Source: Planctomycetota bacterium (GTDB taxonomy: Bacteria > Planctomycetota > UBA8108 > UBA1146). From it: DNA of 64,000 nt. A model generated the notes under the pieces. That model had not been told where the DNA came from. It ran no database searches and was given only the letters and a program-made list of their open reading frames with translations. The position numbers were made by a program, and so were the translations under genes. Positions 4,264 through 61,385 of the stretch are shown piece after piece. Positions within the stretch are counted from its first letter, which is position 1. Each line of letters opens with the position of its first letter. The DNA is taken from the NCBI GenBank assembly GCA_014240375.1, contig JAAZXB010000012.1, positions 15,829 through 79,828 of the forward strand, written 5' to 3'.

Positions 4264-4345
4264 AATACTCGATCCGTCGGGCCACTCGATCAGTGGTGAC
4301 GGTCGTGAAGAAATAGCAACAGATCTACCTTGAAGAGGAGACGAA

Positions 4346-5686
4346 ATGAACGATGAAGAAACGATGAAGCCGGCAGGGAATGACCGCCGTGACTTCCTCA
4401 AAGGCGCAGCACTGGCAGCCGGTGCCATCGCCATCAGTGGGAACAGTTTGCTCGGCTCGGAGCGGATCGGTGCCAAGACCGGTGTCATCGGTAGAGCCGC
4501 TCGTCGCACCCCCCTGGGCGACGATGGAGTGGTGCGAATGGGAGTCATCGGGACCGGAGGGATGGGCGGTGGCCACATCGATTCCTTCCTCCGCTTTGCC
4601 ACCCGTGGCGAGGACAAGGTCAAGATCGTTGCAGTCTGCGATGTCAACCATAAGCGCCGCGCTGTTGCCGAGAGTAAGATCAACAAGGCGCAAGGGGATG
4701 AGTGCACCGTCTACAACGATTACCTGGAACTGCTCGCTCGCGATGACATTCACGGAGTGCTGATCGCTTCCCCGGAACACTGGCACGCCCAGATGGCTGA
4801 AGATGCGTTGATGGCGGGCAAGGATGTGTACCTCGAGAAGCCGATGACGCTGCGTTTGCCGGAGGCGTTGCGCCTGCGTCAGGTGGTTCTCAATAACCCC
4901 GATGTGCTGCTCCAGGTCGGTACCCAGAAGATCATGCTGCCGAAGTACAAGGCGGCTCAGGCGATGGTTGCAGAGGGCGCGATCGGCAAGCCGACCTTCA
5001 GTCAGACCTCCTACTGTCGCAACTCCAGAGATGGGGAGTGGAAGTACTACGGCATCGATCCCGAGTGGAAGCCGGGGGTCAATGTCGACTGGGATCGCTG
5101 GTGTGGCCCGGCCGGAGTTCGCGACTGGAACCCGGCATTGTGTGCTCGCTGGCGTCGCTACAAGGATTTCTCGACCGGCATCGTCGGTGACCTGCTGGTT
5201 CACGAGATCACTCCGTTGATGATGGCGCTCGATCAGGGCTGGCCCACTCGGGTGGTGGCCACCGGTGGCCATTACATCGACAAGGCGATGGAAAATCACG
5301 ATCAGGTCAACTTGCAGATCCAGTTCGAGAAGGGGCACACCCTCATCGTGGCGGGGTCGACCTGCAACGAGATGGGTCTCGAGACGATGATCCGGGGCCA
5401 TCAGGGCACCATTTACCTCAACGGGGGCAACTGCAAGATGGTCCCTCAGCGCTTGTTCGCCGACGATGTCGAACCGCAAGAGGTGATCTGCGAGAGCATC
5501 GGCAATGATCAGGATGCGCTTCGTCGTAACTGGCTCGATTGCATTCGCACCCGTCGTCAACCCGATTCCAATGTCGATCTGGGGACCAAGGTGATCGTTG
5601 CGGTCGACCTGGCGACCCGTTCGATGTGGGAGGGCAAGGCGTTCGAGTTCGATCCTTCCTCGATGACTGCCACGAGCATCGGCTAG
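4346..5686 (+). CDS. Tat-exported Gfo/Idh/MocA family oxidoreductase
   Basis: GAGGAG precedes the ATG. The RRDFLKGAALAAGAIA Tat motif is followed by a Rossmann fold (MGVIGTGGMGGGH) and the EKP motif (VYLEKPMT). Confidence 0.85.
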   Translation: MNDEETMKPAGNDRRDFLKGAALAAGAIAISGNSLLGSERIGAKTGVIGRAARRTPLGDDGVVRMGVIGTGGMGGGHIDSFLRFATRGEDKVKIVAVCDVNHKRRAVAESKINKAQGDECTVYNDYLELLARDDIHGVLIASPEHWHAQMAEDALMAGKDVYLEKPMTLRLPEALRLRQVVLNNPDVLLQVGTQKIMLPKYKAAQAMVAEGAIGKPTFSQTSYCRNSRDGEWKYYGIDPEWKPGVNVDWDRWCGPAGVRDWNPALCARWRRYKDFSTGIVGDLLVHEITPLMMALDQGWPTRVVATGGHYIDKAMENHDQVNLQIQFEKGHTLIVAGSTCNEMGLETMIRGHQGTIYLNGGNCKMVPQRLFADDVEPQEVICESIGNDQDALRRNWLDCIRTRRQPDSNVDLGTKVIVAVDLATRSMWEGKAFEFDPSSMTATSIG

Positions 5687-5705
5687 TCGGTCGCGGGGAT
5701 ACGAG

Positions 5706-6608
5706 ATGATGCACAGGGGAGCTCTCCCGGCGATGGGAACTCGATTCGAGATCGTCGCCGGGGGAGCGGATCCCGCTCTTCTACGTGCTGCAGTGGAGGA
5801 AGCCTTCGAGGAGATCTCCACCTGTCATCGGTTGTGGAATGTTTTTTCCAACGACAGCACACTGGCACGAATCGATGCCGAATCTGCCGGTAAACCGGTG
5901 ACCATCGATGGGCTGACACTGGAACTGCTGCAGATCTGTTCCCGACTTCATCAGCAGACTGGCGGTTTCTTTGATCCGGTCATCGGAGCGGACCTGGCGG
6001 CCGGGGATCCGCGTCGCGCTCCGATCTTCGGTGTCGCTCCTCGAGATGGTTTCGGGGGAATCGAACTCGATGCTGCGGCTTCCACTGTACGGCGACACGA
6101 TTCTCGATTGAGGTTCGACCTGGGGGGGATCGCCAAGGGCTTTGCCTGTGATCTGGCCGCCTCGATCCTGCTCGAAGCGGGAGTGGAGTGTGCGTTGATC
6201 CATGGCGGCACCAGTAGCGTGGTGGCGTTGGGAGCGGCTCCGGGAAGGCAGGACTGGTCGATCGAGGTGAAGGGTTACGAGGGGAAGCAGATCGGACTGG
6301 TCGACCGTGCGATGGCGGTCACCTCCGCCGGAGGCGGCGGCGCAGGGGGCCACCTCATCGATCCCTTCAGCGGCGATCGACTCGGGCGTGATCGCGGTGG
6401 AGCGATGGTGGTCGGAGACAGTGCAACCGACTGTGATGGCTGGGCCACCGCACTGACTGTGGCTGGCTTTGAAGGAGATGTGGCCCGACAGATTCCTGCA
6501 ACGATGCAGGGCTATCGGCTCAACAATGAAGAATCGACTCACATGAAACCGGAAGCTGAGGCATCCGTGGAAGAGGAACGATGGAAACGGACCGTAGAGA
6601 TTTCTTGA
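5706..6608 (+). CDS. apbE: FAD:protein FMN transferase ApbE (no signal peptide)
   Basis: The AMGTRFEI (MGT motif), DLGGIAKGFA and AVTSAGGG motifs are characteristic of ApbE. The N-terminus starts directly at the catalytic core with no signal peptide or lipobox. It overlaps the next gene by 28 nt. Confidence 0.75.
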   Translation: MMHRGALPAMGTRFEIVAGGADPALLRAAVEEAFEEISTCHRLWNVFSNDSTLARIDAESAGKPVTIDGLTLELLQICSRLHQQTGGFFDPVIGADLAAGDPRRAPIFGVAPRDGFGGIELDAAASTVRRHDSRLRFDLGGIAKGFACDLAASILLEAGVECALIHGGTSSVVALGAAPGRQDWSIEVKGYEGKQIGLVDRAMAVTSAGGGGAGGHLIDPFSGDRLGRDRGGAMVVGDSATDCDGWATALTVAGFEGDVARQIPATMQGYRLNNEESTHMKPEAEASVEEERWKRTVEIS

Positions 6609-7810
6609 TCCAGAGCGCAGGTGCACTGGCCGGGATGGCACTTCTTCCAGGACTGGAAGCGATGGCGACGAATGTCCCGAAAGGCTATCCGGTTGCCATC
6701 ATCGGCATGGGCCGACAGGGTCGAGCGATTGCCGCAGAGTTGCAGAAACTGGGAGCGGCCATCGTGGCGATCTGTGACCTCGATGAGCCGCGATTGAGAA
6801 GTGCCAGGAGGCGCGTCTCGGATGCCACTCCCTATGCCGATTCGGATTCGTTGCTGACGACCGAGAAGGGAGTGGAGGCGGTCTTCATCGCCACCCCGAC
6901 CCACCAGCATCGGGCGATTGCCGAGGCGGCAGTGGCGGCGGGCAAGCATGTCTACTGCGAGGCGCCGCTGGCACATACCCTCGAGGATGCTCGGGCCATC
7001 GCCTTGGCCGCCCGTTCCAATCCGCGAGTTTTCCAGGTCGGGTTGTTGGCGCGATCCAATCCGGTCTACTCGCTGGCTCGCTCCTTCTTCCGCACCGAGG
7101 CGTTCCTCAAGTTGGTCTCGATGCGCGCCCAGAACTCACGGAAAACCTCCTGGCGTCAAGCGGCCTCGACTGCCGAGCGGCAAGCTCGTCTCGACTGGCG
7201 TCTCGACCCCACCGTGTCGCTCGGATTGCCGGGAGAATGGGGCACCCATCAGTTTGATGTCATTCATTGGTTCACCGGGCAGTATCCCCATCGTGTGTCG
7301 GGAAATGGCGGAGTGTTCGTGTGGGAAGATGGGCGCAAGGTCGCCGATACCGTCAACTTGACCCTCGAGTTTCCCAAGGGCCAGAGTCTCCAGTACCAGG
7401 CGACGCTGGGCAATTCATATGGTGGCCGCTACGAGGTGCTCCATGGCGTCAACTCCGCATTCAAACTGGCCTGGAGTCATGGCTGGATGTTCAAGGAAGC
7501 GGATGCGGCGACGCAGGGCTGGGAAGTCTACGCCAACCGTCAGCGCTTCTTCAATGACGAGGGGATCACCCTCATCGCTGATGCGACCAAACTCGCCAGT
7601 CAGAACAAGTTGAAGGATGGGGTTGGACTCCCCAATGATTCTCTCCATTACGGTGTGGCAGATTTCCTGCTGAGTTGTGCAGAGCAGATGAAGGTCAAGA
7701 CGGGGGTCAGTGAAGGACTGCGAGCGACTGCCGTGGGGATCGCTGCACAGCGTGCGGTGGTCGAGGGTGGCGTGATCGAGATCTCACAGGACGATCTGAA
7801 GGAGGCCTAG
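6581..7810 (+). CDS. Tat-exported Gfo/Idh/MocA family oxidoreductase
   Basis: The RRDFLIQSAGALAGMAL Tat signal is followed by a VAIIGMGRQGRA Rossmann fold and a CEAPLA (EKP-variant) motif. Confidence 0.8.
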   Translation: METDRRDFLIQSAGALAGMALLPGLEAMATNVPKGYPVAIIGMGRQGRAIAAELQKLGAAIVAICDLDEPRLRSARRRVSDATPYADSDSLLTTEKGVEAVFIATPTHQHRAIAEAAVAAGKHVYCEAPLAHTLEDARAIALAARSNPRVFQVGLLARSNPVYSLARSFFRTEAFLKLVSMRAQNSRKTSWRQAASTAERQARLDWRLDPTVSLGLPGEWGTHQFDVIHWFTGQYPHRVSGNGGVFVWEDGRKVADTVNLTLEFPKGQSLQYQATLGNSYGGRYEVLHGVNSAFKLAWSHGWMFKEADAATQGWEVYANRQRFFNDEGITLIADATKLASQNKLKDGVGLPNDSLHYGVADFLLSCAEQMKVKTGVSEGLRATAVGIAAQRAVVEGGVIEISQDDLKEA

Positions 7811-52779: not shown

Positions 52780-52898
52780 CACCTTTATCCAACCCCATCT
52801 GGTGAGTGGTCGACATTTTACGTCGTTCGCAGAGCGATCCTGTAGGACCCACACCTTTTTCGCTTCTTGCTGCACCCTGCGAGAGAGGATTCCTCGGT

Positions 52899-54077
52899 AT
52901 GAATATTCTGGCCAGTAGGAGGAGCCGCAGTTTTCTGGCCATTGCTCTGTGGTCAGTGTTGCTGATTTTCTTGGGATTCTTTCTTCTCGATCGATACCGC
53001 ACTGAAAATCAACGTCTCACGGTAGAGATTCATCAGTTGCTCGGTGCCAGTAGTGTGGCGCAGCACATCGGAAACATCTCTGCTGGGAGAGATCCGAGAT
53101 ATTTCCCGCTGCTCCATCGGATGGCCCTGCTCGATTACCTCGCTTCAAATCCGTCAACGTTGACGCCAGAGCAGGAGGTCGAAGGGGTTCCTTTTCAGGT
53201 TTTTATCGATCGATACGAGGCGATCTGGGCGTTGACCCATCAGCCACAAGCCAGAAAAGCGCGCACCGTTCAGCAGTTTGGCTCCGGTGCGAATCAACTG
53301 TTCGCGCTGAATCCAGAATTCGAGAGCATGAACAGTTTGTCGATTCCTTTCTCGGGTAACGCTCTTTTGCTGGAAGAGCGAGTGGAGTGGGCGGCTCGAT
53401 CTCTTGAATGTATCGAAGGGTACACAGGAGGAAGCTTCCTGATCGATGAAACGACCCGTATCGGGCTGATTTCCGATTGGATCAACAAGTGCAGATTCTC
53501 GCTGCTCAAACTGAAAAGCGTGGATCACTTGCGGCGACTTCTGGTCGCTCTGGATGGTATCGAGCCGCCAGTCGTGGCGTTCCGGAGCGCGATGAAAATG
53601 GAATACGTCGCTACGATGGGAGTGCTTCAGACTTCTCGCAACGCAGCGCCGGGTGGGTCGATGCCATTATATCGTGAGCCCGAGCTTCACTATGTACTCT
53701 CTCATCTTAAAACCAGAATCCTCGATCTCGCCGAGCCAGTGGAGCCGTTGGATTCACCCTGGTATGGCACTCTCAACGAGGTCATTGATTCCAACACCCG
53801 CTACGGAATCTACACGTATTATGACGGCTGGTACGATGACGAGTTCATCAATCACACACTGGCATTGAGTCATGAACTGGCCGATGGAATCAAGTTCTTC
53901 CGAGAGGCGCTCAGATATCGTATCGCCCGTCTCGAACTGGGGGATCTGGCAATCCTTCGAGAGGACTTGACGGTGGACTCCCTGAACTCGGGGCAGATTC
54001 GCGTGACCTGGGTCGGTAAGCGGGTCACAACTCCGACACTGCCGGAGCTGTTCGACCCCTATCTTTTTCCAGAGTAG
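52899..54077 (+). CDS. Hypothetical membrane-anchored protein (lower GC than surroundings)
   Basis: Start MNILASRRSRSFLAIALWSVLLIFLGFFLL is an N-terminal TM anchor. The first about 400 nt are visibly AT-richer than flanking DNA. No family recognised. Confidence 0.55.
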   Translation: MNILASRRSRSFLAIALWSVLLIFLGFFLLDRYRTENQRLTVEIHQLLGASSVAQHIGNISAGRDPRYFPLLHRMALLDYLASNPSTLTPEQEVEGVPFQVFIDRYEAIWALTHQPQARKARTVQQFGSGANQLFALNPEFESMNSLSIPFSGNALLLEERVEWAARSLECIEGYTGGSFLIDETTRIGLISDWINKCRFSLLKLKSVDHLRRLLVALDGIEPPVVAFRSAMKMEYVATMGVLQTSRNAAPGGSMPLYREPELHYVLSHLKTRILDLAEPVEPLDSPWYGTLNEVIDSNTRYGIYTYYDGWYDDEFINHTLALSHELADGIKFFREALRYRIARLELGDLAILREDLTVDSLNSGQIRVTWVGKRVTTPTLPELFDPYLFPE

Positions 54078-54352
54078 GTCTTTCCTATCCCCTCTCAGTA
54101 CCACAGGAGTTTCCGGCTGACCTACGATGCATCCTCGAGAAAAGGTGTATGCAACTCGCCAGGCGAGGATCCGTCGCTACCCGCTCGGTTTGCAGCTCTC
54201 GTATTTCTCTTCAGGTATTCTTCTCCGCGTTCTGGCCAGCCCCGACCTGTACATGTGCCTGTTGGTAATTGTCATACGATGCACTTAGTCCTGGGTAGGG
54301 CATGGTGAAAGACTTGAGCGATGAATCGTGCGACAATGGCGGGGGAGGACTC

Positions 54353-55777
54353 ATGAACGTTCGATACACACTTCTCGCCCTGCTGACGGCGGCGCTATTG
54401 CCCGCAACTGGCCAATCTCAGCAGGCTGCCATCGAATTTGCCCCGCCCGTATCGGTCGTGATGGCGGACAAGGTCAATGCCGTCAAGATGGCGGACGTCG
54501 ATTCCGATGGCCACCTCGACATCATCGCCTTGCAGGGGGAGCCGGCACTCACTTCGGGGATGTTCGTCGCTCTCGGCGATGGCAGCGGCAATTTCGATGC
54601 CCCCGTCTTCAACGCGATCTCCATCAACTGGCCCTGGGCGATCGATTTCGGCGACATCAACGAGGATGGAGTCATCGATGCGGTCGTGACCGATTTCCTG
54701 AGCGGCCAATTTGCCTACATGGAAGGAAACGGCGACGGAACCTTCAGCGAACAGCCGAGGTTGGTGCCCGGCTGGGGAGGCGGAAATCCGCAGGTACAAC
54801 TCGCCGATATCGACGATGATGGGCACCTCGATGTGATCGCCGTCGAATTGTTCGGTTCGCGGTTACAGGTGGCATGGGGCACAGGAATCGATGATCCGCT
54901 GGCAGCGTTTGACGGTCTGTCGTCGATCCTGCTGACGGGATATCCACTCAGCTTTGATATCGCCGATCTCGATGGCGATGGCGACCTCGACCTGTGCTGC
55001 GGATTCAACGCCGGCAGCGGCGGTGGGGTGGCGACCAGCCTCTACCTGGGGGGCAGAACCTTCTCCGCCGAGGAACGCTCGATCGGCGGGCTGACCGATT
55101 CTCACTGGTCGACGATCGCCATCGATCTCGATGGCGGACTGCCAGAGATCGTGACCGTCGAGGAGGGGCTGGGGAACCTTGGAATCTTCACCGTGGCTGC
55201 AGGGATTCCCCAGGCCGGAATCCCGATCTTCACCGGATCGAATCAGCGCCATGTGGACGGTGGGGATCTCGACCTCGATGGCATCACCGACCTGGTGATC
55301 AGAAACTACTCTTCCGGAGATCTTGTCATCCTGCAGGGTATCGGCGCCTTGGAATTCCTGGATGTGTGGACCCTCGACGGATCGGTTTCCTTCTCGGGGC
55401 TGGAGCTGGTCGATGTGAACGGGGATGGAGGTCTCGATATCGTCGTCGGCAACTACGATCAATCGACCGTCTCCTACTACCTGAATCTGACGGTCAGCGG
55501 AGCCTTCAGGCGCGGCGAACTCAACGGCGATGGCAACACCAACATCGCCGATGCCGTGTTCCTGCTCGCCTACCTCTTCAACAATGGGTTCACGCCGGGT
55601 TGTCTGGATGCCGCCGACACCAACGATGATGGGGGGGTCAACATCTCCGATGCGGTGACGTTGCTGGCGGTTCTCTTCAGCGGGGCCCCGCCACTGCCGG
55701 AGCCGATCGGCTCGTGCGGTCCGGATCCGACCGATGATGCGCTCGAGTGCGAAGATTCAGGAGATTCCTGCCTGTGA
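54353..55777 (+). CDS. Secreted FG-GAP/VCBS-repeat (integrin-alpha-like beta-propeller) protein with C-terminal dockerin-like module
   Basis: GGGGGAGG 5 nt upstream. Signal peptide MNVRYTLLALLTAALLPATG. Repeated Dx(D/N)xDGxxDhhh motifs are present (DVDSDGHLDIIAL, DINEDGVIDAVVTDF, DIDDDGHLDVIAV, DLDGDGDLDLCCG, DVNGDGGLDIVVGN). The C-terminus has GELNGDGNTNIADAVFLLAYLF and DTNDDGGVNISDAVTLLAVLF, then a CGPDPTDDALECEDSGDSCL tail. Confidence 0.8.
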   Translation: MNVRYTLLALLTAALLPATGQSQQAAIEFAPPVSVVMADKVNAVKMADVDSDGHLDIIALQGEPALTSGMFVALGDGSGNFDAPVFNAISINWPWAIDFGDINEDGVIDAVVTDFLSGQFAYMEGNGDGTFSEQPRLVPGWGGGNPQVQLADIDDDGHLDVIAVELFGSRLQVAWGTGIDDPLAAFDGLSSILLTGYPLSFDIADLDGDGDLDLCCGFNAGSGGGVATSLYLGGRTFSAEERSIGGLTDSHWSTIAIDLDGGLPEIVTVEEGLGNLGIFTVAAGIPQAGIPIFTGSNQRHVDGGDLDLDGITDLVIRNYSSGDLVILQGIGALEFLDVWTLDGSVSFSGLELVDVNGDGGLDIVVGNYDQSTVSYYLNLTVSGAFRRGELNGDGNTNIADAVFLLAYLFNNGFTPGCLDAADTNDDGGVNISDAVTLLAVLFSGAPPLPEPIGSCGPDPTDDALECEDSGDSCL

Positions 55778-55815
55778 GGGCGATCGCCGCAATGCCGGAT
55801 CCCATCGACTCCTTC

Positions 55816-55869
55816 CACCTTGTCGACCTCATGCACCTTGTCGACCTCATGCACCTTTTCGACCTCATC
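55816..55869 (+). repeat. 18-bp tandem direct repeat x3 (imperfect) in long non-coding leader
   Basis: caccttgtcgacctcatg x2 then caccttttcgacctcatc. Other direct repeats are nearby: gcgcccccctccaac at 55883 and 55915, and tgagggcgctggcaatt x2 at about 56290-56325. Confidence 0.85.
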
Positions 55870-56101
55870 GGTACCCTGGCAGCGCCCCCCTCCAACTTCC
55901 GAGGGTAGGCTCCTCGCCCCCCTCCAACGGGCGTCATTGGGCCCGTAATGGGCTCCAGGCGCTGCTAGCAGCGCCCCTCAGAACCTATTTGAAATAATCG
56001 GTCCGGCCCCCCCGGTGAAGCGGATCACCCAGTAGCGGGCATGAGCCTGCTGGGCCGCCGGGACCCGCCTCCGGAGTCTAGAGAATGAAAGTTGGTGAAA
56101 C

Positions 56102-56215
56102 ATGACAGCAATCGTCAAACGCTTCGGAGTCTGGGGTCTGATCTTCTTCACGGTGAAGGGCCTCTTGTGGTTGGCAGTGCCGAGCATGGCCGTTTATCTG
56201 GGAATCGGTGGCTAG
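56102..56215 (+). CDS. Unannotated 37-codon ORF encoding a hydrophobic peptide (candidate small membrane protein)
   Basis: The ORF reads atg aca gca atc gtc aaa ... ggc tag, giving MTAIVKRFGVWGLIFFTVKGLLWLAVPSMAVYLGIGG. It is below the 60-aa cutoff of the supplied ORF track. The Shine-Dalgarno is weak (GGTGAAAC). Confidence 0.3.
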   Translation: MTAIVKRFGVWGLIFFTVKGLLWLAVPSMAVYLGIGG

Positions 56216-56542
56216 CCGCACCGATCGGGTACCCACTGATTCCTCGGAAAGTGGCCTCCACGCCCTCTACTGCCGGATCTCACGGGAGTTGAGGGCGCTG
56301 GCAATTGAGGGCGCTGGCATTTGAAGGCTGCAGATCCGCGGGCTCTGCCAGGAGCAGGAAACTGTAAAACCACGCGTATCGCCACTAATCAGCGATTTAT
56401 ACCAATTCCGACCCCATTTCTCGATCTACAGAAGTTTTCCGGTCCGGTGATCCCCTGGCTACGGATAGATAGGTAGCGGGCGAGCGCCCGCAGGGTGAGC
56501 GGGCCCGCACCCCGCGACTTCTGGACCAAAAGGTGGTGAATC

Positions 56543-57334
56543 ATGACCGAGATCAAGAACAACGAAATCGAGCGCGAGACCGAGTCGAACGAGAAGGCCA
56601 AGCAGTCCGGCAGCGGACGCGTCGACGCTCCCACCAGAACAGAGGAAGAGGTCACCTTCGCTCAGAGGCTTCGGTCCGAGACCGCCCAGGCACACCGCTT
56701 CGCCGAGTCCACCAACTTCATCAAGGGGATCCTGAAGGGCGTCATGGACCTCGAGAGCTTCGGTAACATGCAAGCGGGGATGTACCTCGTGTACGAGGCG
56801 CTGGAAGAGGAACTCGAGCGCCACAGGGATCACCCTCTGCTGGGCCAGATCTACTTCCCCGTACTCAGCCGCAAGGCTTCACTGGAAACCGATCTCGAGA
56901 GTCTCTACGGGGCTCACTGGCGCAGCCAGGTGCGCAGCACTCCCGCTCGCAGCGAGTATGTCGACCGCATCCACTGGCTCGGCGACAACGACCCCACCCT
57001 GCTGGTCGCCCACAGTTACACACGATACCTCGGAGACCTTTCCGGCGGTCAGGTGATCGCCAAGATCGCTCGACGCTCGTTGAATATCGAGGGGAGCATC
57101 GGCCTCACCTTCTTCCAGTTTGACGAGATCGAAGATGGCAAGGCGTTCAAGAACGAGTTCCGCAACCGGCTCAGCGCCCTGCCACTCGACGAGGATCGTG
57201 CTCAGGAGGTGATCGAAGAGGCCAAGGAGGCCTTCGCCTTCAATCAGCGCATCTTCGAGGAGCTGGAAGGCAGTTGGATCCGCACCCTCGCGAACTTCCT
57301 CCCACTCGGTTTTAATAGGCGCAAGCGGGCTTGA
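56543..57334 (+). CDS. Heme oxygenase (HO-1/HmuO/PbsA family)
   Basis: AGGTGGTGA Shine-Dalgarno. [28 protein letters not shown] closely matches the HO-1 distal-helix region ([28 protein letters not shown]). A proximal His-containing helix ([14 protein letters not shown]) is also present. Confidence 0.85.
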   Translation: [263 protein letters not shown]

Positions 57335-57447
57335 TTCTGCGCCCCGGCCACAGGGTCCGGGCGCTCGGGTCCGAGGATGTCAGCCCGTTCAATATTCAAC
57401 AGGACGAAATTCAACAGGGCGAAGAGTTGAATCAGGAGTGTGAATCG

Positions 57448-58638
57448 ATGGAAATCGTAGAACTGGGCGGTGAGACCGCCTCGCAAGATGCAGATCATGG
57501 CTTCGACCCCGAAACCTTCAAGGATTTCATCTCCTTCGATGTGGGGGACGGCGAGCCGATCTATTACCACAGTGTCGGTAAACTCTATCGCCAACCCGGT
57601 GGAGAGATCATCGCCGGAGTCGAGGCGCTGGTGAGTAACCGACTGGTGAAGATGGAAGGGAACCAGGCGGAAGCGGTGTGTCGGACGCTGGTGATCTATC
57701 GTGATCCCGATACCGGCGAGATCTTGCAGGATGAAGATGGTAGCCACATCATCCGCGAGTATCCCTACATCGTCGCTCAGTTCGAATTGAAGAAGAACCG
57801 GGTGGTGATCCATACCGAGGGCCTCAGTGGGCCGCACCAGAATGGGCTCTACGGCCTCGCAAGGGTCAGCAATGACAAGGTCTTTGCGCAGCGCTCCGGC
57901 GACACCACCTTCTTCTACTGGACCCTCTACGGCGAGGTCGAGACCCCCATCGGCAAGGTCTGGTTCAACGAGGCCTACAACGGCTCGACCGCTCCCGGGG
58001 TGCCCGATGTGATGGTGATGAACCGCTACGGCACGCTGCCGGCATTTGCCGGGATGGGAGACGGTTTCATGCAGACCACCGCCGCACGTATCGACTCCTA
58101 TGATGATCTGCCTGAGCACCTGCGCGAGTATGTTGCAGAGTACGCGCCTTCGCACTGCGGGCCGCCCGCCGACGATGCGGAGATCGAAGCCCTCAAGGAG
58201 CAGTACCTCGGCGATCATCCGCCCGAGGCACCGAAATCAGCGGCCCCCGAGCAGTTGAGCAAGGAGCAGATCGCCGAGGTCGTGGGCGGATACTTCTCGT
58301 GCCTTCGCAACATGCAGGTCGACGAGTTGCTCGAACTCTTCAGTGAAGATGCACTGAGCTGGGATCCGGTCGGCACGCCGCCGCTGCTGGTCCGCGACAA
58401 GTCGACCAACTACTTCAAGGCACTCTCCGGCTTCTTCGAGAAGATGGCCTTGACCGAGGATGACATGTTCGTGGCGGGTAACGAGGCCGCTGTCCGGTGG
58501 ACCGGTGTCGCAAAGTTGCGCAAGAAGGAGAAGGAACTCACCTTCGAGGGAGTCTCTGTCTTCACCGTCAATCCCGATGGATTGATCTCCTGCGTCCGTT
58601 CCTACTGGGACAAGAAGACGCTGATGTCGAGTCTTTGA
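57448..58638 (+). CDS. Hypothetical two-domain protein: ~280-aa uncharacterised N-terminal domain plus C-terminal SnoaL/NTF2-like domain
   Basis: AGGAG 10 nt upstream. The C-terminal roughly 120 aa (SKEQIAEVVGGYFSCLRNMQVDELLELFSEDALSWDP...TFEGVSVFTVNPDGLISCVRSYWD) have an NTF2-like/SnoaL-like pattern. I cannot place the N-terminal domain confidently. Confidence 0.65.
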   Translation: MEIVELGGETASQDADHGFDPETFKDFISFDVGDGEPIYYHSVGKLYRQPGGEIIAGVEALVSNRLVKMEGNQAEAVCRTLVIYRDPDTGEILQDEDGSHIIREYPYIVAQFELKKNRVVIHTEGLSGPHQNGLYGLARVSNDKVFAQRSGDTTFFYWTLYGEVETPIGKVWFNEAYNGSTAPGVPDVMVMNRYGTLPAFAGMGDGFMQTTAARIDSYDDLPEHLREYVAEYAPSHCGPPADDAEIEALKEQYLGDHPPEAPKSAAPEQLSKEQIAEVVGGYFSCLRNMQVDELLELFSEDALSWDPVGTPPLLVRDKSTNYFKALSGFFEKMALTEDDMFVAGNEAAVRWTGVAKLRKKEKELTFEGVSVFTVNPDGLISCVRSYWDKKTLMSSL

Positions 58639-58649
58639 GGAGGAATGCG

Positions 58650-59303
58650 ATGAGTGAAGCCGCCGACAATCCAGTGCTAGTCGATCCCGAAAAGTACGCC
58701 GCCGTTGCGGATAATTTCGTCTATGTCCACCGTGCCCTGCGTCGGGATCTGGCGCGAATCATCGGCGGCGGAGACGAGCTCTTCGCCAGCGACTTCCTGC
58801 GTTTTGCGCGGATCCTCGAGAAGCACTCGGAACTGGAGGACACGCTCTTCTTTCCACCGCTGGAGGAGCGCGCGCCCGGATCGACCGGTGCCAGCGTCGA
58901 TCAGCACCGTCAAATCGAAGCCCTCGTGACCACTCTATCAGGCGGCAATTCCACCGACATCCAGGGCGACCTGGCGAAACTGCAGGAACTACTGCTGACT
59001 CACCTCGATGATGAGGAGCAGCAGATCATGCCGGCGATGATGAAGCACTTCGAGGCGGCCGAGATCTGGGCCCTCGACGGCAGGATCATGGAGTTCTGCT
59101 CGCCGGAGTTCATGCAGGAGATGATGCCGTGGTGGTTCACCCACATCGATGCCGCCGATCGAGTCTGCGTCGCCCAGAACATACTTGCTGGGGTTCCCCC
59201 GGAGTTTCTGCCGGTGCTGAGCCAGTGGATCGCGAGCGGTCTCGATGAGACGCAGTGGAACGAGTTGGTCGGGCAAGTTCCTGCGCTGGCCGCGACCGCC
59301 TGA
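58650..59303 (+). CDS. Hemerythrin-like (HHE cation-binding) domain protein
   Basis: GAGGAGG 7 nt upstream. Two H...E...FP-type helices are present: VYVHRALRRDL...ILEKHSELEDTLFFPPLEER and LLTHLDDEEQQIMPAMMKHF. Confidence 0.7.
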   Translation: MSEAADNPVLVDPEKYAAVADNFVYVHRALRRDLARIIGGGDELFASDFLRFARILEKHSELEDTLFFPPLEERAPGSTGASVDQHRQIEALVTTLSGGNSTDIQGDLAKLQELLLTHLDDEEQQIMPAMMKHFEAAEIWALDGRIMEFCSPEFMQEMMPWWFTHIDAADRVCVAQNILAGVPPEFLPVLSQWIASGLDETQWNELVGQVPALAATA

Positions 59304-59318
59304 GTCGCGTCTGCAGTT

Positions 59319-59705
59319 CTATCGCTCCGGTGAGAAGGGCGCGGTGGGATCCCGGAGCATCGCCGATTCGAGCAGGATATTCCCTTCCTCACATTCTTTT
59401 AGAATGCCGTCGACAAAACAAATGTCACCGGGCTTCTTGCTTTGTGCCATCGCGGGTAAACGGCTGAAATCGCAACGGATTCCGTTTCCAAGATGGATCC
59501 ATCCGGCTTGCGGGTCGCTGACATCGGTCCGGGTCACGGTTCCTTTGATGGTGATTTTCTTGCCCAGATATTTCTGTCCTAGTGCTGCCACATCCTTTTC
59601 CAGAAACTGCGCTGCAGGCTGCCCATAGTCCATCTTCAACGCCTGGCACCCGACACTCAGGCTGACCAGGATCAAGATTGACATCTTCAGGAGTGTGCTT
59701 TTCAC
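59319..59705 (-). CDS. Hypothetical lipoprotein
   Basis: Signal plus lipobox MKSTLLKMSILILVSLSVGC. 128 aa. No family recognised. Confidence 0.55.
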   Translation of the reverse strand: MKSTLLKMSILILVSLSVGCQALKMDYGQPAAQFLEKDVAALGQKYLGKKITIKGTVTRTDVSDPQAGWIHLGNGIRCDFSRLPAMAQSKKPGDICFVDGILKECEEGNILLESAMLRDPTAPFSPER

Positions 59706-59801
59706 TGAGAGATCCTTTCGTGGAGTTCCCTGGTAGAAGGGCTGGAATCCACTCTATCGGAGTCCTACTCGATGACAACGAGGAGTCGATAGGATCTCGG
59801 C

Positions 59802-61385
59802 TCACTCCAACGACTTGTCGAGAAGCCGTTGATAAGCCTTTGTTCCCACCAGCATCTTGTTTTTCTTGGCGTAGTCGATCGCCATCTTGCCGTCGTTGTT
59901 GCGGGCGAGGGGATCGGCGCCCTTGTCGAGGAGTGCCTGAACGATCTCGGGGCTGGAGGAGAACTGAGCGGTGTACATCAGCGGGGTCATGCCGAGTGGA
60001 TCGGCGACATCCAGCCCAGCGCCGCTGTCGATGAGCAGCTTCACGATCTCGGGGGGCGAGGAGTTGCCGGTGGCGAAAAGCAGCGGCGTCATGCCGAGCG
60101 GATCACTGGCATCCAGTTCAGCGCCGCTGTCGATGAGTAACTTCACGATCTCGGCGCTGGTGGAGTGCGCTGCGGCGACGATCAGCGGGGTCATGTCGAA
60201 CTTGTTTCTGGCTTCCAGTTCAGCGCCGTTGTCGATGAGCAACTTGACGATCTCGGGGGTCGAGGAGTAGGCTGCGGCTTGCATCAGCGGGGTCGAGTCG
60301 GCACTGGAGGATGGGTCTCTGGCGAGCATCTGCGGGATCTTGTCGTCGTTGTTGTTGGCGTTGTTGCCCCTGGCTTCCAGTTCAGCGCCCTCATCCAGGA
60401 GAACTTTTACGATCTCGGGGCTGGTGGAGTGACGGGCGGCGATCATCAACGGGGTCGCGCCGGCGTTGCTCCTGGCTTCCAGTTCAGCGCCGCCGTCGAT
60501 GAACCGCTTCACGATCTCGGCGCTGGAGGAGTGTGCTGCGGCCAACATCAGCGGTGTCCTGCCCGAGCCGTCGTCAATCCTGGCTTCCAGATCAGCGCCC
60601 TTGTCGATGAGCAGCGTTGCGATCTCGGCGCTGGAGGAGTAACGAGCGGTGTACATCAGCGGAGTCATCCCCTTGTTGTTCTTGACCTCGACCCGGGCAC
60701 CCCTGTCGAGGAGCATCTGAACGATCTCGGGTTCTGAGGATCGCGCCGAGGCGAAATGGAGCGGCGTCATATCAATATTACTGCTGGTCTGGACATCGGC
60801 GCCCTTGTCGAGAAGCAGCTGAACGATTTCTGGCATGTAGGAATGCTGTACAGCGAACATCAACGGCGTCATGCCGCCCTTGTTTCGGTCGACGATCTGG
60901 GCACCGTGATCGAGCAGCATCTGAACGATCTCGATGGTCCTGGAATGTGCGACGGAGTACATCAATGCGGTCCCGCCCCCGTCGCTTCTGTTGTCGATCC
61001 TGGCGCCCCTGTCGAGCAGTAATTGAACCATCTCTGGAATATGGGATCGTGCTGCGGCAGCCATCAGCGGGGTCCCACCATCCGGGCCTCTGGCATCGAT
61101 CTGGGCACCCCTGTCGAGCAGGTACTCTGCGATCTTCGGGTTTGAAGAGCGTTGAGCGGCAAACCACAGCGGCGTCAAACTGTTCTTGTTCCTCGCATCG
61201 ATCACCGCACCCTCATCGACCAGCTGCTGGACCAGGGCTAAATTGTGAGTGCTGGCGGCGATGTGCAGTGGAGTGTCGTTGAAGCGGTTGGGTTCCTGAG
61301 CTTCAGTGGTGGCGACGAGGAATAGCATTGCCAGTAAGCAGGTCTGGGCTCGATCGAAAATTCGACTCTCGCTCTCTGGTTTCAT
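59802..61385 (-). CDS. Secreted ankyrin-repeat protein (~14 ANK repeats)
   Basis: Signal-like N-terminus (CLLAMLFLVATTEAQ), then reiterated 33-aa units of the form G(M/A)TPL(M/H).AA....S.EIV(K/Q)LL(I/L)D.GA.(L/I)(D/E)A(R/S). The strongly periodic DNA gives many overlapping spurious ORFs on both strands. Confidence 0.85.
   Translation of the reverse strand: MKPESESRIFDRAQTCLLAMLFLVATTEAQEPNRFNDTPLHIAASTHNLALVQQLVDEGAVIDARNKNSLTPLWFAAQRSSNPKIAEYLLDRGAQIDARGPDGGTPLMAAAARSHIPEMVQLLLDRGARIDNRSDGGGTALMYSVAHSRTIEIVQMLLDHGAQIVDRNKGGMTPLMFAVQHSYMPEIVQLLLDKGADVQTSSNIDMTPLHFASARSSEPEIVQMLLDRGARVEVKNNKGMTPLMYTARYSSSAEIATLLIDKGADLEARIDDGSGRTPLMLAAAHSSSAEIVKRFIDGGAELEARSNAGATPLMIAARHSTSPEIVKVLLDEGAELEARGNNANNNDDKIPQMLARDPSSSADSTPLMQAAAYSSTPEIVKLLIDNGAELEARNKFDMTPLIVAAAHSTSAEIVKLLIDSGAELDASDPLGMTPLLFATGNSSPPEIVKLLIDSGAGLDVADPLGMTPLMYTAQFSSSPEIVQALLDKGADPLARNNDGKMAIDYAKKNKMLVGTKAYQRLLDKSLE

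Follow-up and report, generated by a model that had tools for sequence, protein, structure and literature searches.

A conserved heme oxygenase gene cassette with a barrel-NTF2 fusion protein and a hemerythrin-like protein in Planctomycetota and Myxococcota

Gene content of the locus

The stretch of DNA analysed here, referred to as the window, is a 64,000-nucleotide segment of contig JAAZXB010000012.1 from a Planctomycetota bacterium (assembly GCA_014240375.1). It holds a gene for a heme oxygenase (HO), followed on the same strand by a gene for a two-domain fusion protein (the middle protein) and a gene for a hemerythrin-like protein. Upstream of this trio lies a separate small gene, a micro-open reading frame (micro-ORF) for a membrane protein of 37 amino acids, and copies of a bipartite promoter-like motif precede both the small gene and the HO gene. 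We hold these anatomical parts, namely the conserved operon, the duplicated promoter-like motif and the genuine micro-protein gene, with high confidence. The features are listed below, with positions counted from the first nucleotide of the window.

56001-56025, + strand: motif copy 1, GTCCGG-N14-CGGAT followed by GTAGCGGGC, about 100 nt ahead of the ATG of the micro-ORF; position weight matrix (PWM) score 45.6
56102-56215, + strand: micro-ORF for a predicted 37-aa single-pass membrane protein, encoding MTAIVKRFGVWGLIFFTVKGLLWLAVPSMAVYLGIGG
56258-56300, + strand: GC-rich hairpin about 45 nt past the micro-ORF stop; inverted repeat at 56261-56297
56442-56466, + strand: motif copy 2, GTCCGG-N14-CGGAT, 101 nt upstream of the HO ATG; PWM score 51.2
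56543-57334, + strand: HO-1-family heme oxygenase gene, 263 aa; PF01126, E = 6.7e-72, 242 bits
57448-58638, + strand: middle protein gene, 396 aa; SnoaL_2 at residues 281-381, E = 1.6e-14
57448-58242, + strand: N-terminal domain of the middle protein (about residues 1-265), a modelled 10-stranded meander beta-barrel with flanking helices; remote DUF1838 relative
58243-58638, + strand: C-terminal NTF2-like (SnoaL_2 / ketosteroid-isomerase-like) domain of the middle protein
58650-59303, + strand: hemerythrin/HHE-domain protein gene, 217 aa; PF01814, E = 2.1e-11, 44.8 bits

A previous reading of the letters without database searches (the sequence-only reading) had described three + strand genes separated by gaps of 113 and 11 nt and provided with ribosome-binding sites, and all of this was confirmed. 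By direct reading, AGGAG precedes the ATG at 57448, after the 113-nt gap between the HO and middle genes, and GGAGG precedes the ATG at 58650, after the 11-nt gap between the middle and hemerythrin-like genes. Profile searches bore out the proposed identities of the three products as well: an HO-1-family enzyme with a distal-helix motif, a 396-aa protein with a SnoaL/NTF2-like C-terminus and a hemerythrin/HHE protein. The hydrophobic micro-ORF noticed in the upstream stretch is present as well, with 37 codons, and proved to be conserved as a protein.

The NCBI record of the same metagenome-assembled genome (MAG) contains the trio as MDE0958911 to MDE0958913, with the middle protein drawn out to 435 aa from a TTG at 57331. 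The middle gene shows the same start point as ATG 57448 in 23 homologues, and because they all begin at this place we take ATG 57448 to be the true start; the 435-aa version probably has an over-extended start. The spacer between the HO and middle genes measures 113 nt in the window compared with ~24-30 nt in most relatives. The extra spacer sequence, within 57331-57447, holds a short tandem, TTCAACAGGRCGAA twice, and the NCBI annotation reads through it.

Conservation of the cassette in two phyla

A profile search with the middle protein retrieved 27 loci in species-representative genomes, of which 22 belong to marine Planctomycetota and 5 to Myxococcota, and the same profile retrieved 27 further loci in metagenomes; removal of duplicates left 46 distinct loci overall. 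When these were searched by tblastn with the window proteins, the order HO, middle gene, hemerythrin-like gene was found to be kept in species-level and metagenome loci. The HO gene lies immediately upstream of the middle gene at 42 of the 43 loci that reach far enough, and the hemerythrin-like gene lies immediately downstream of it at 31 of the 32 testable loci. The trio had been proposed to form one unit on the understanding that its genes would not be unlinked in relatives, and the linkage is indeed kept across the 46 loci and both phyla. Because the two phyla share the cassette with middle proteins that are 68-70% identical, its distribution points to a functional module spread by horizontal transfer.

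Clustering of all ORFs from all loci revealed no further co-conserved gene family except an FG-GAP/dockerin paralogue, a recurring neighbour that simply reflects synteny among close relatives. No bilin reductase, phytochrome or regulator gene is linked to the cassette in the loci. Ferredoxin-dependent bilin reductase (FDBR) is absent from the precomputed Pfam lists of the loci, and the Pfam families of TonB-dependent receptors and ABC transporters are absent within 4-6 kb at every locus.

The heme oxygenase and the hemerythrin-like protein

The match of the HO to PF01126 covers positions 2-204 of the 204 in the profile, with 242 bits against a cut-off of 23, and is preceded by an N-terminal extension of 36 aa of acidic/basic character. 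The best match in the PDB is 1we1 (E = 7e-65), which we take to be Synechocystis HO-1; the protein is also near mammalian HO-1 and HO-2, and HmuO-type enzymes (1iw0, E = 8.5e-40) are more distant from it. The segment TAQAHRFAE aligns His-on-His with TKKSHSMAE of 1we1, and the distal-helix motif is identical to that of 1we1 in its 12 residues. According to established structural knowledge of HO-1, the aligned His is presumably the proximal heme ligand and the Gly-rich motif presumably the distal helix. By these signatures the protein is a canonical HO-1-type enzyme, and cleavage of heme is predicted.

The third protein of the trio matches the HHE profile PF01814 over residues 21-129 (44.8 bits against 25.3). 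All 29 distinct homologues compared share H27, H59, E63, H86, E90, H118 and E122, and these seven invariant His/Glu residues are the full ligand complement for a predicted di-iron site on four helices. The C-terminal region of ~90 aa is conserved and has no family assignment. The protein is remote from solved and curated members of the family, with a best PDB match of E = 0.11 (the mycobacterial hemerythrin-like protein 6q09) and NCBIfam scores far below the cut-offs. In its four-helix domain with His/Glu di-iron ligands it resembles bacteriohemerythrin, YtfE/RIC and 6q09, but it is only distantly related to them and possesses the conserved C-terminal region as its own.

A predicted ten-stranded barrel fused to a ketosteroid-isomerase-like domain

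The full-length middle-protein family is narrow, forming one 50%-identity cluster among 1.8 billion representatives. AlphaFold modelled the protein as two domains, with a predicted local distance difference test score (pLDDT) of 81.8 for the whole protein and, for residues 1-265, a pLDDT of 90.7 and a predicted template modelling score (pTM) of 0.88. In the model, the N-terminal domain opens with a helix, continues with ten long antiparallel strands and ends in further helices. Its invariant residues include H41, C78, R79, H100, R103, H130 and Y177. A Foldseek search with this barrel returned weak generic barrel matches. Comparison with nitrobindins and with the CpcS/CpeS/CpcT/CpeT lyases gave a match at the level of the fold, with 4-9% identity and with outer-membrane barrels scoring equally well, and no sequence-level homology to the nitrobindin or S-/T-type bilin lyase families was found. 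The barrel differs from the nitrobindins (Rv2717c, the C-terminal domain of THAP4) and the phycobilin lyases in its longer strands, its larger size and its equal likeness to outer-membrane barrels, and by sequence it sits near DUF1838 and not near those families. The modelled fold, encoded next to an HO, is suggestive. The proposal that the NTF2-like protein could bind the tetrapyrrole product is supported to the extent that the barrel fold and the NTF2 domain make it plausible, but proteins other than bilin binders match the fold as well.

The middle-protein profile also found stand-alone relatives of the barrel, of 240-300 aa, which pass the threshold of DUF1838 (PF08894) with 38-41 bits. 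The N-terminal domain of the middle protein is best classed as a divergent DUF1838 relative and not as a scoring member. Many of the stand-alone relatives have a signal peptide, whereas the HO-linked clade does not. At the locus L036, the gene directly after HO encodes a stand-alone barrel homologue (54% identical), and the next one encodes a canonical DUF1838 protein (E = 1e-40); this gene order, which lies outside the fusion, gives independent support to a functional tie between barrel and HO.

The L036 arrangement (4267-7173), also seen at L037 and L038, comprises the HO gene, the barrel homologue of 247 aa, the DUF1838 protein of 285 aa and then an unassigned 190-aa protein; upstream of HO, this lineage carries a PASTA-domain protein and a hybrid kinase/response regulator. 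Two further candidates for remote HO-linked barrels were dropped, P0037 as a singleton on an 801-nt contig and P0027 (L078) for having no adjoining HO.

The C-terminal domain matches the NTF2-like SnoaL_2 profile and has the cone-shaped alpha+beta fold. It aligns to the ketosteroid isomerase (KSI) mhKSI 6p3l (E = 6.6e-8) and to MonBI/MonBII 9kw6 (E = 1.4e-8) at 25-27% identity, a relationship of family level and not of orthology, and differs from KSI and MonB-type NTF2 enzymes in being fused to a barrel and encoded in an HO operon. Residue D306, in the common DPVGxPP motif, aligns to the catalytic Asp of VEDPVG in 6p3l (Asn in the mutant 6p44), and Y282 aligns to the oxyanion-hole Tyr of HRYLEF in 6p3l. 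Both residues are invariant throughout the fusion family. The third KSI acid is a Ser in the middle protein, likewise in mhKSI. Because the catalytic Asp and Tyr positions are kept and invariant, the NTF2-like domain looks catalytic and not merely like a binding module.

A small membrane protein gene upstream of the heme oxygenase

The micro-ORF was found in 20 of 33 testable loci, with a length of 35-40 aa when counted from the most conserved ATG; some loci offer longer in-frame upstream starts. Its core, VK(R/K)FGVxGL(I/V)FFTVKGLLW(L/I)xVP, is invariant. The variable sites are distributed over the three codon positions as 10/6/26, the ratio of nonsynonymous to synonymous variation (pN/pS) is 0.19, and the sequence just 3' of the micro-ORF has diverged to random (31% ungapped identity). 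Judged from this pattern of substitution, the micro-ORF is a genuine gene under purifying selection. The hairpin that follows it has 16 predicted pairs, a consensus energy of -22.7 kcal/mol and 3 compensatory pairs across 7 diverged sequences. It is not followed by a T-tract and is not recovered by the intrinsic-terminator scan; it is probably a terminator or the 3' end of the micro-ORF transcript. Because of this conserved 3' hairpin, the micro-ORF looks like a transcription unit of its own.

A profile search with the micro-protein retrieved 444 proteins of 36-69 aa, mostly of 46-50 aa, from sources that include Acidobacteriota and Actinomycetota, and the core of this larger family, KRFGVAGFxFFLVKGLLWLIVPAL, is almost invariant. 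No model in Pfam or NCBIfam covers this family of single-pass membrane proteins, and in one NCBI record a member is wrongly named 'alanyl-tRNA synthetase'. Genomic context was looked up for seven members outside the trio, and at two of these (L070 and L079) the micro-protein gene lies 36-41 nt upstream of an HO gene. These two HOs share 25-26% identity with the window HO and 38% with one another. Because the adjacency recurs at three different HO lineages, it argues for a functional link between the micro-protein and heme oxygenase; membrane tethering, or coupling to import or export, are possibilities for its role. A 350-aa protein considered as a conserved partner of the micro-protein (L066, L071 and L070) was rejected, the L070 protein being unrelated to the other two.

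A promoter-like motif before the small gene and the operon

The 126 nt around motif copy 1 and the 126 nt around copy 2 align without gaps and share 71 identical positions. The consensus derived from 37 sites at 20 diverged loci consists of GTCCG(G/A), a 14-nt spacer, C(G/T)GAT, N6 and GTA, with an AT-rich stretch upstream; the positions GTCCG, C and GAT are invariant, and the spacer carries ~0.1-0.5 bits. In most planctomycete loci the ~600 nt ahead of HO contain the motif exactly twice: one copy lies ~65-105 nt ahead of the micro-ORF start, the other ahead of the start of HO. When a PWM built from the other loci was run over the 64-kb window, the two leader copies were the only sites to score above 12, and the scan found no further copies elsewhere in the window. 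Since the bare pattern is expected ~1.3 times by chance in the window, the evidence for the motif is the phylogenetic footprint and not the count in the window.

Because it combines two conserved boxes at a rigid spacing with a free spacer, we infer that the motif is a promoter (-35/-10) of an ECF-type (extracytoplasmic function) alternative sigma factor, and the fixed 14-nt spacer at all 37 sites is the layout of boxes and spacing that such promoters have. Copy 2 is the probable promoter of the three-gene operon, and the HO 5' untranslated region (5'UTR) is probably only ~70 nt long. A scan of 55600-59800 found no sigma-70 promoter and no intrinsic terminator on the + strand.

A third copy, GTCCGR-N15-KGAT, occurs at L012 (2763) and at L015, there in the segment 2754-3342. 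In L015 the copy precedes the gene of a secreted 179-aa protein by ~50 nt, and after that gene comes a homologue of the unassigned 423-aa protein of the window (52806-54077). This placement hints at a wider regulon, of which the L015 secreted protein may be a member.

Proposed function and alternative explanations

We propose that the locus is a co-regulated heme-degradation cassette with tetrapyrrole-handling and iron/O2-handling accessory proteins, and consider this model, taken as a whole, to have about an even chance of being correct. An ECF-type sigma factor acting at both motif copies would switch on the small membrane protein and the operon together. HO would convert heme to biliverdin, Fe2+ and CO, and the barrel domain would hold the tetrapyrrole, either incoming heme or, more likely, outgoing biliverdin. 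Biliverdin release limits HO turnover. The KSI-like domain could carry out a proton-transfer step on the ligand of the barrel or simply complete its binding site, and the hemerythrin-like protein could take up the released iron, or supply or sense O2 for the oxygenase. The small membrane protein would be a membrane partner of HO.

Several observations weigh against this model. In the exception clade, L006 and L007, genes for a short-chain dehydrogenase and a methyltransferase-like protein come after HO and the middle gene, and no heme transporter, reductase or ferredoxin gene is linked to the cassette in the loci. The micro-ORF and the motif are both absent from the Myxococcota loci and from some planctomycete loci; a relaxed pattern gave no convincing copy of the motif in the Myxococcota loci, L026, L027, L036, L070 or L079. 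Five of the seven micro-protein look-ups found no HO neighbour (L066, L071, L074 together with L081, which has the same context, and L076), and two stand-alone barrel relatives (L078 and L063) have none either. The middle protein of the window scores 20.2 bits against DUF1838 and does not reach its threshold of 25. The promoter assignment takes its evidence from conservation, and the biochemical roles of the cassette proteins are likewise ones that we infer.

The same genes could serve a pathway whose purpose is the bilin product and not iron salvage. HO would make biliverdin, the lyase-like barrel would bind it and the KSI-like domain would isomerise or hydrate it, and the outcome would be a new bilin or biliprotein (a pigment, sensor or antioxidant) in non-photosynthetic bacteria. 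Several features fit this explanation: the HO is closest to the cyanobacterial/animal HO-1 type and not to the HmuO type, the barrel fold is common to the CpeT, CpeS, CpcT and CRL bilin lyases, the NTF2 domain retains the catalytic Tyr/Asp pair, C78 is invariant in the fusion family and in P0029, and no heme-uptake genes are linked. A precedent exists in the HO-associated bilin-binding proteins of heterotrophs, Myxococcales included (PMC10151467). On the other hand, no locus contains an FDBR, phytochrome or globin, the barrel fold match is shared with proteins other than bilin binders, and biliverdin is fully conjugated and offers no obvious KSI-type isomerisation; many of the source samples are dark-ocean or hydrothermal-plume metagenomes, which speaks against a role related to light. 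We regard a bilin-product pathway as possible but unlikely.

A bolder proposal, rather unlikely in our estimation, is that the barrel-KSI fusion is a new bilin-processing or bilin-carrying protein working with HO and that, separately, the micro-protein family, with its membrane proteins of 37-50 aa, is an unrecognised membrane partner of bacterial HOs, found beside three unrelated HO subfamilies, the two together constituting a new heme-catabolic route in abundant dark-ocean heterotrophs.

The cassette might instead be a stress- or gas-sensing module in which the hemerythrin-like protein senses O2, NO or peroxide while HO removes pro-oxidant heme or makes the protectants CO and biliverdin, the alternative-sigma promoter marking a stress regulon rather than a response to iron limitation. 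Its promoter architecture is typical of stress-responsive ECF sigma factors, no Fur-type box was found, the third motif copy of L015 stands before an unrelated secreted protein and suggests a broader regulon, and the mycobacterial protein 6q09 is, at a weak E value, the nearest solved relative of the hemerythrin-like protein. A stress module leaves unexplained, however, why a two-domain fusion is kept between the other two genes in 46 loci; moreover, the hemerythrin-like protein is without an output domain, and no regulator gene is linked. We consider a sensing module decidedly doubtful.

Bacterial operons for heme utilisation employ an HO-1-family enzyme to free iron and have a dedicated regulator, often an iron-starvation ECF sigma factor. 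With HmuO, HemO/PigA and the hmu/phu/has systems the window cassette has the HO-1-family heme oxygenase in common, but it differs from them in having no linked gene for a TonB-dependent receptor, ABC transporter or heme chaperone and no Fur box, and none of the described heme-uptake loci was found to include a barrel-NTF2 fusion, a hemerythrin-like protein or a 37-aa membrane protein. Clusters for bilin synthesis in heterotrophs, which combine HO with pre-PcyA and a bilin-biosynthesis-associated globin, occur in Myxococcales and Planctomycetes, and the study that describes them makes no mention of an NTF2, SnoaL or hemerythrin partner (PMC10151467). The two kinds of cluster are alike in placing HO beside genes for non-photosynthetic tetrapyrrole-binding proteins (predicted ones in the window), but the window cassette has no FDBR or globin, and its candidate binder is the barrel with the NTF2 domain.

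Searches of the literature on DUF1838, on HO with hemerythrin and SnoaL, and on Planctomycetota with NTF2 found no published HO operon of this composition. Besides this composition, the fusion of barrel and KSI-like domain, the linkage of a DUF1838-like domain to HO, the promoter motif and the family of HO-associated micro-proteins all appear to be undescribed in the literature searched. All of the domains belong to known superfamilies, and HO operons as such are well known. The cassette joins a textbook enzyme to three uncharacterised partners. Gene linkage now ties a divergent DUF1838 relative to tetrapyrrole chemistry, the hemerythrin-like protein represents a new subfamily, and a highly conserved family of small membrane proteins outside Pfam and NCBIfam repeatedly adjoins HO genes. 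The promoter motif offers a means of delimiting a regulon in organisms that are not yet cultivable. Heme is a major oceanic iron reservoir, and the cassette bears on its use or recycling by uncultured pelagic Planctomycetota and Myxococcota. In the genomes of six cultured marine planctomycetes, a published survey noted neither a heme oxygenase nor a heme transporter (PMC11588811).

Repeats and hairpins of the upstream region

The sequence-only reading had regarded the 750 bp upstream of HO as one long leader whose direct repeats and GC-rich hairpins would be regulator sites or a structured RNA. Repeats and ORF are present, but the stretch is not a single untranslated leader, for it holds a separate small gene with its own motif and hairpin. 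The repeats take the following form.

55805-55868, + strand: 18-nt tandem in 3 copies, between the FG-GAP/dockerin stop and the first promoter-like motif
55883 and 55915: 14-nt unit in 2 copies
56284-56315, + strand: direct duplication of 16 nt (TTGAGGGCGCTGGCAA-like), specific to the window

The segment 55805-55930, after the FG-GAP/dockerin stop, is minisatellite-like, with 18-nt units and then CGCCCCCCTCCAAC twice, and its copy number varies among MAGs that are ~90-92% identical in the middle protein. Close relatives have 0-4 divergent copies of the 18-nt tandem, which L010, L061 and L040 lack, and the 16-nt duplication is a single copy in every relative compared. This variation in copy number, or absence, in close relatives rules the repeats out as conserved operators; they are probably neutral, strain-variable products of slippage, the 18-nt tandem being probably non-functional.

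A search of Rfam with 55600-56700 gave chance-level matches only (E = 3.7 and 9.6), and the two putative 5'UTRs folded no better than shuffled sequences (z = -0.19 and -0.77); a structured leader RNA or riboswitch was rejected, there being neither an Rfam family nor an excess of folding stability. Scans for Fur, Irr, PerR and RirA boxes, with consensus sequences from other phyla, gave nothing above the window background: the best Fur match has 10 of 19 positions and is equalled or bettered at 434 positions of the window, and the other boxes behave similarly. The Fur, Irr and PerR check proposed for this region thus came out negative. That the repeats and hairpins of 55778-56542 are regulator sites or a structured cis-regulatory RNA, with the micro-ORF as a regulatory upstream ORF, is highly improbable: they do exist, and a 6-7-bp hairpin, GCGGGC-N4-GCC(C/U)GC, can form at the start of each putative 5'UTR, but the repeats vary in copy or occur in the window only, RNA and operator searches alike were negative, and the micro-ORF shows conservation at the protein level, comes with a promoter-like motif and a conserved 3' hairpin of its own and belongs to a family found in many unrelated contexts.

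Flanking genes and variant loci

The cassette is flanked in the window by the following genes.

54302-55777, + strand: FG-GAP/dockerin protein (Pfam), upstream of the cassette
59319-59705, - strand: lipoprotein-like gene, convergent, which ends the unit
59802-61385, - strand: 527-aa protein with a signal-like N-terminus and repeats that look ankyrin-type by eye

Both the FG-GAP/dockerin protein and the 527-aa protein come from families with several copies in related loci.

Some loci depart from the window in their gene content. At L006 (5162-8742) and L007, the place of the hemerythrin-like gene is taken by genes for the 280-aa short-chain dehydrogenase and for a 235-aa protein that weakly resembles methyltransferases, possible alternative tailoring enzymes. 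A fragment 57% identical to residues 179-211 of the hemerythrin-like protein lies ~1.4 kb downstream of the intact gene at L011 (9192-9302) and at L042 and L043 (8192-8302), and may be the remnant of a duplication. At L005 (146-4733), from a Myxococcota MAG, the trio is directly preceded by a stand-alone SnoaL_2 gene on the opposite strand; further out, on the strand of the SnoaL_2 gene, come genes for a cupredoxin-like protein, a multiheme cytochrome and an MtrB/PioB-type porin, and as a group these resemble an extracellular electron-transfer set.

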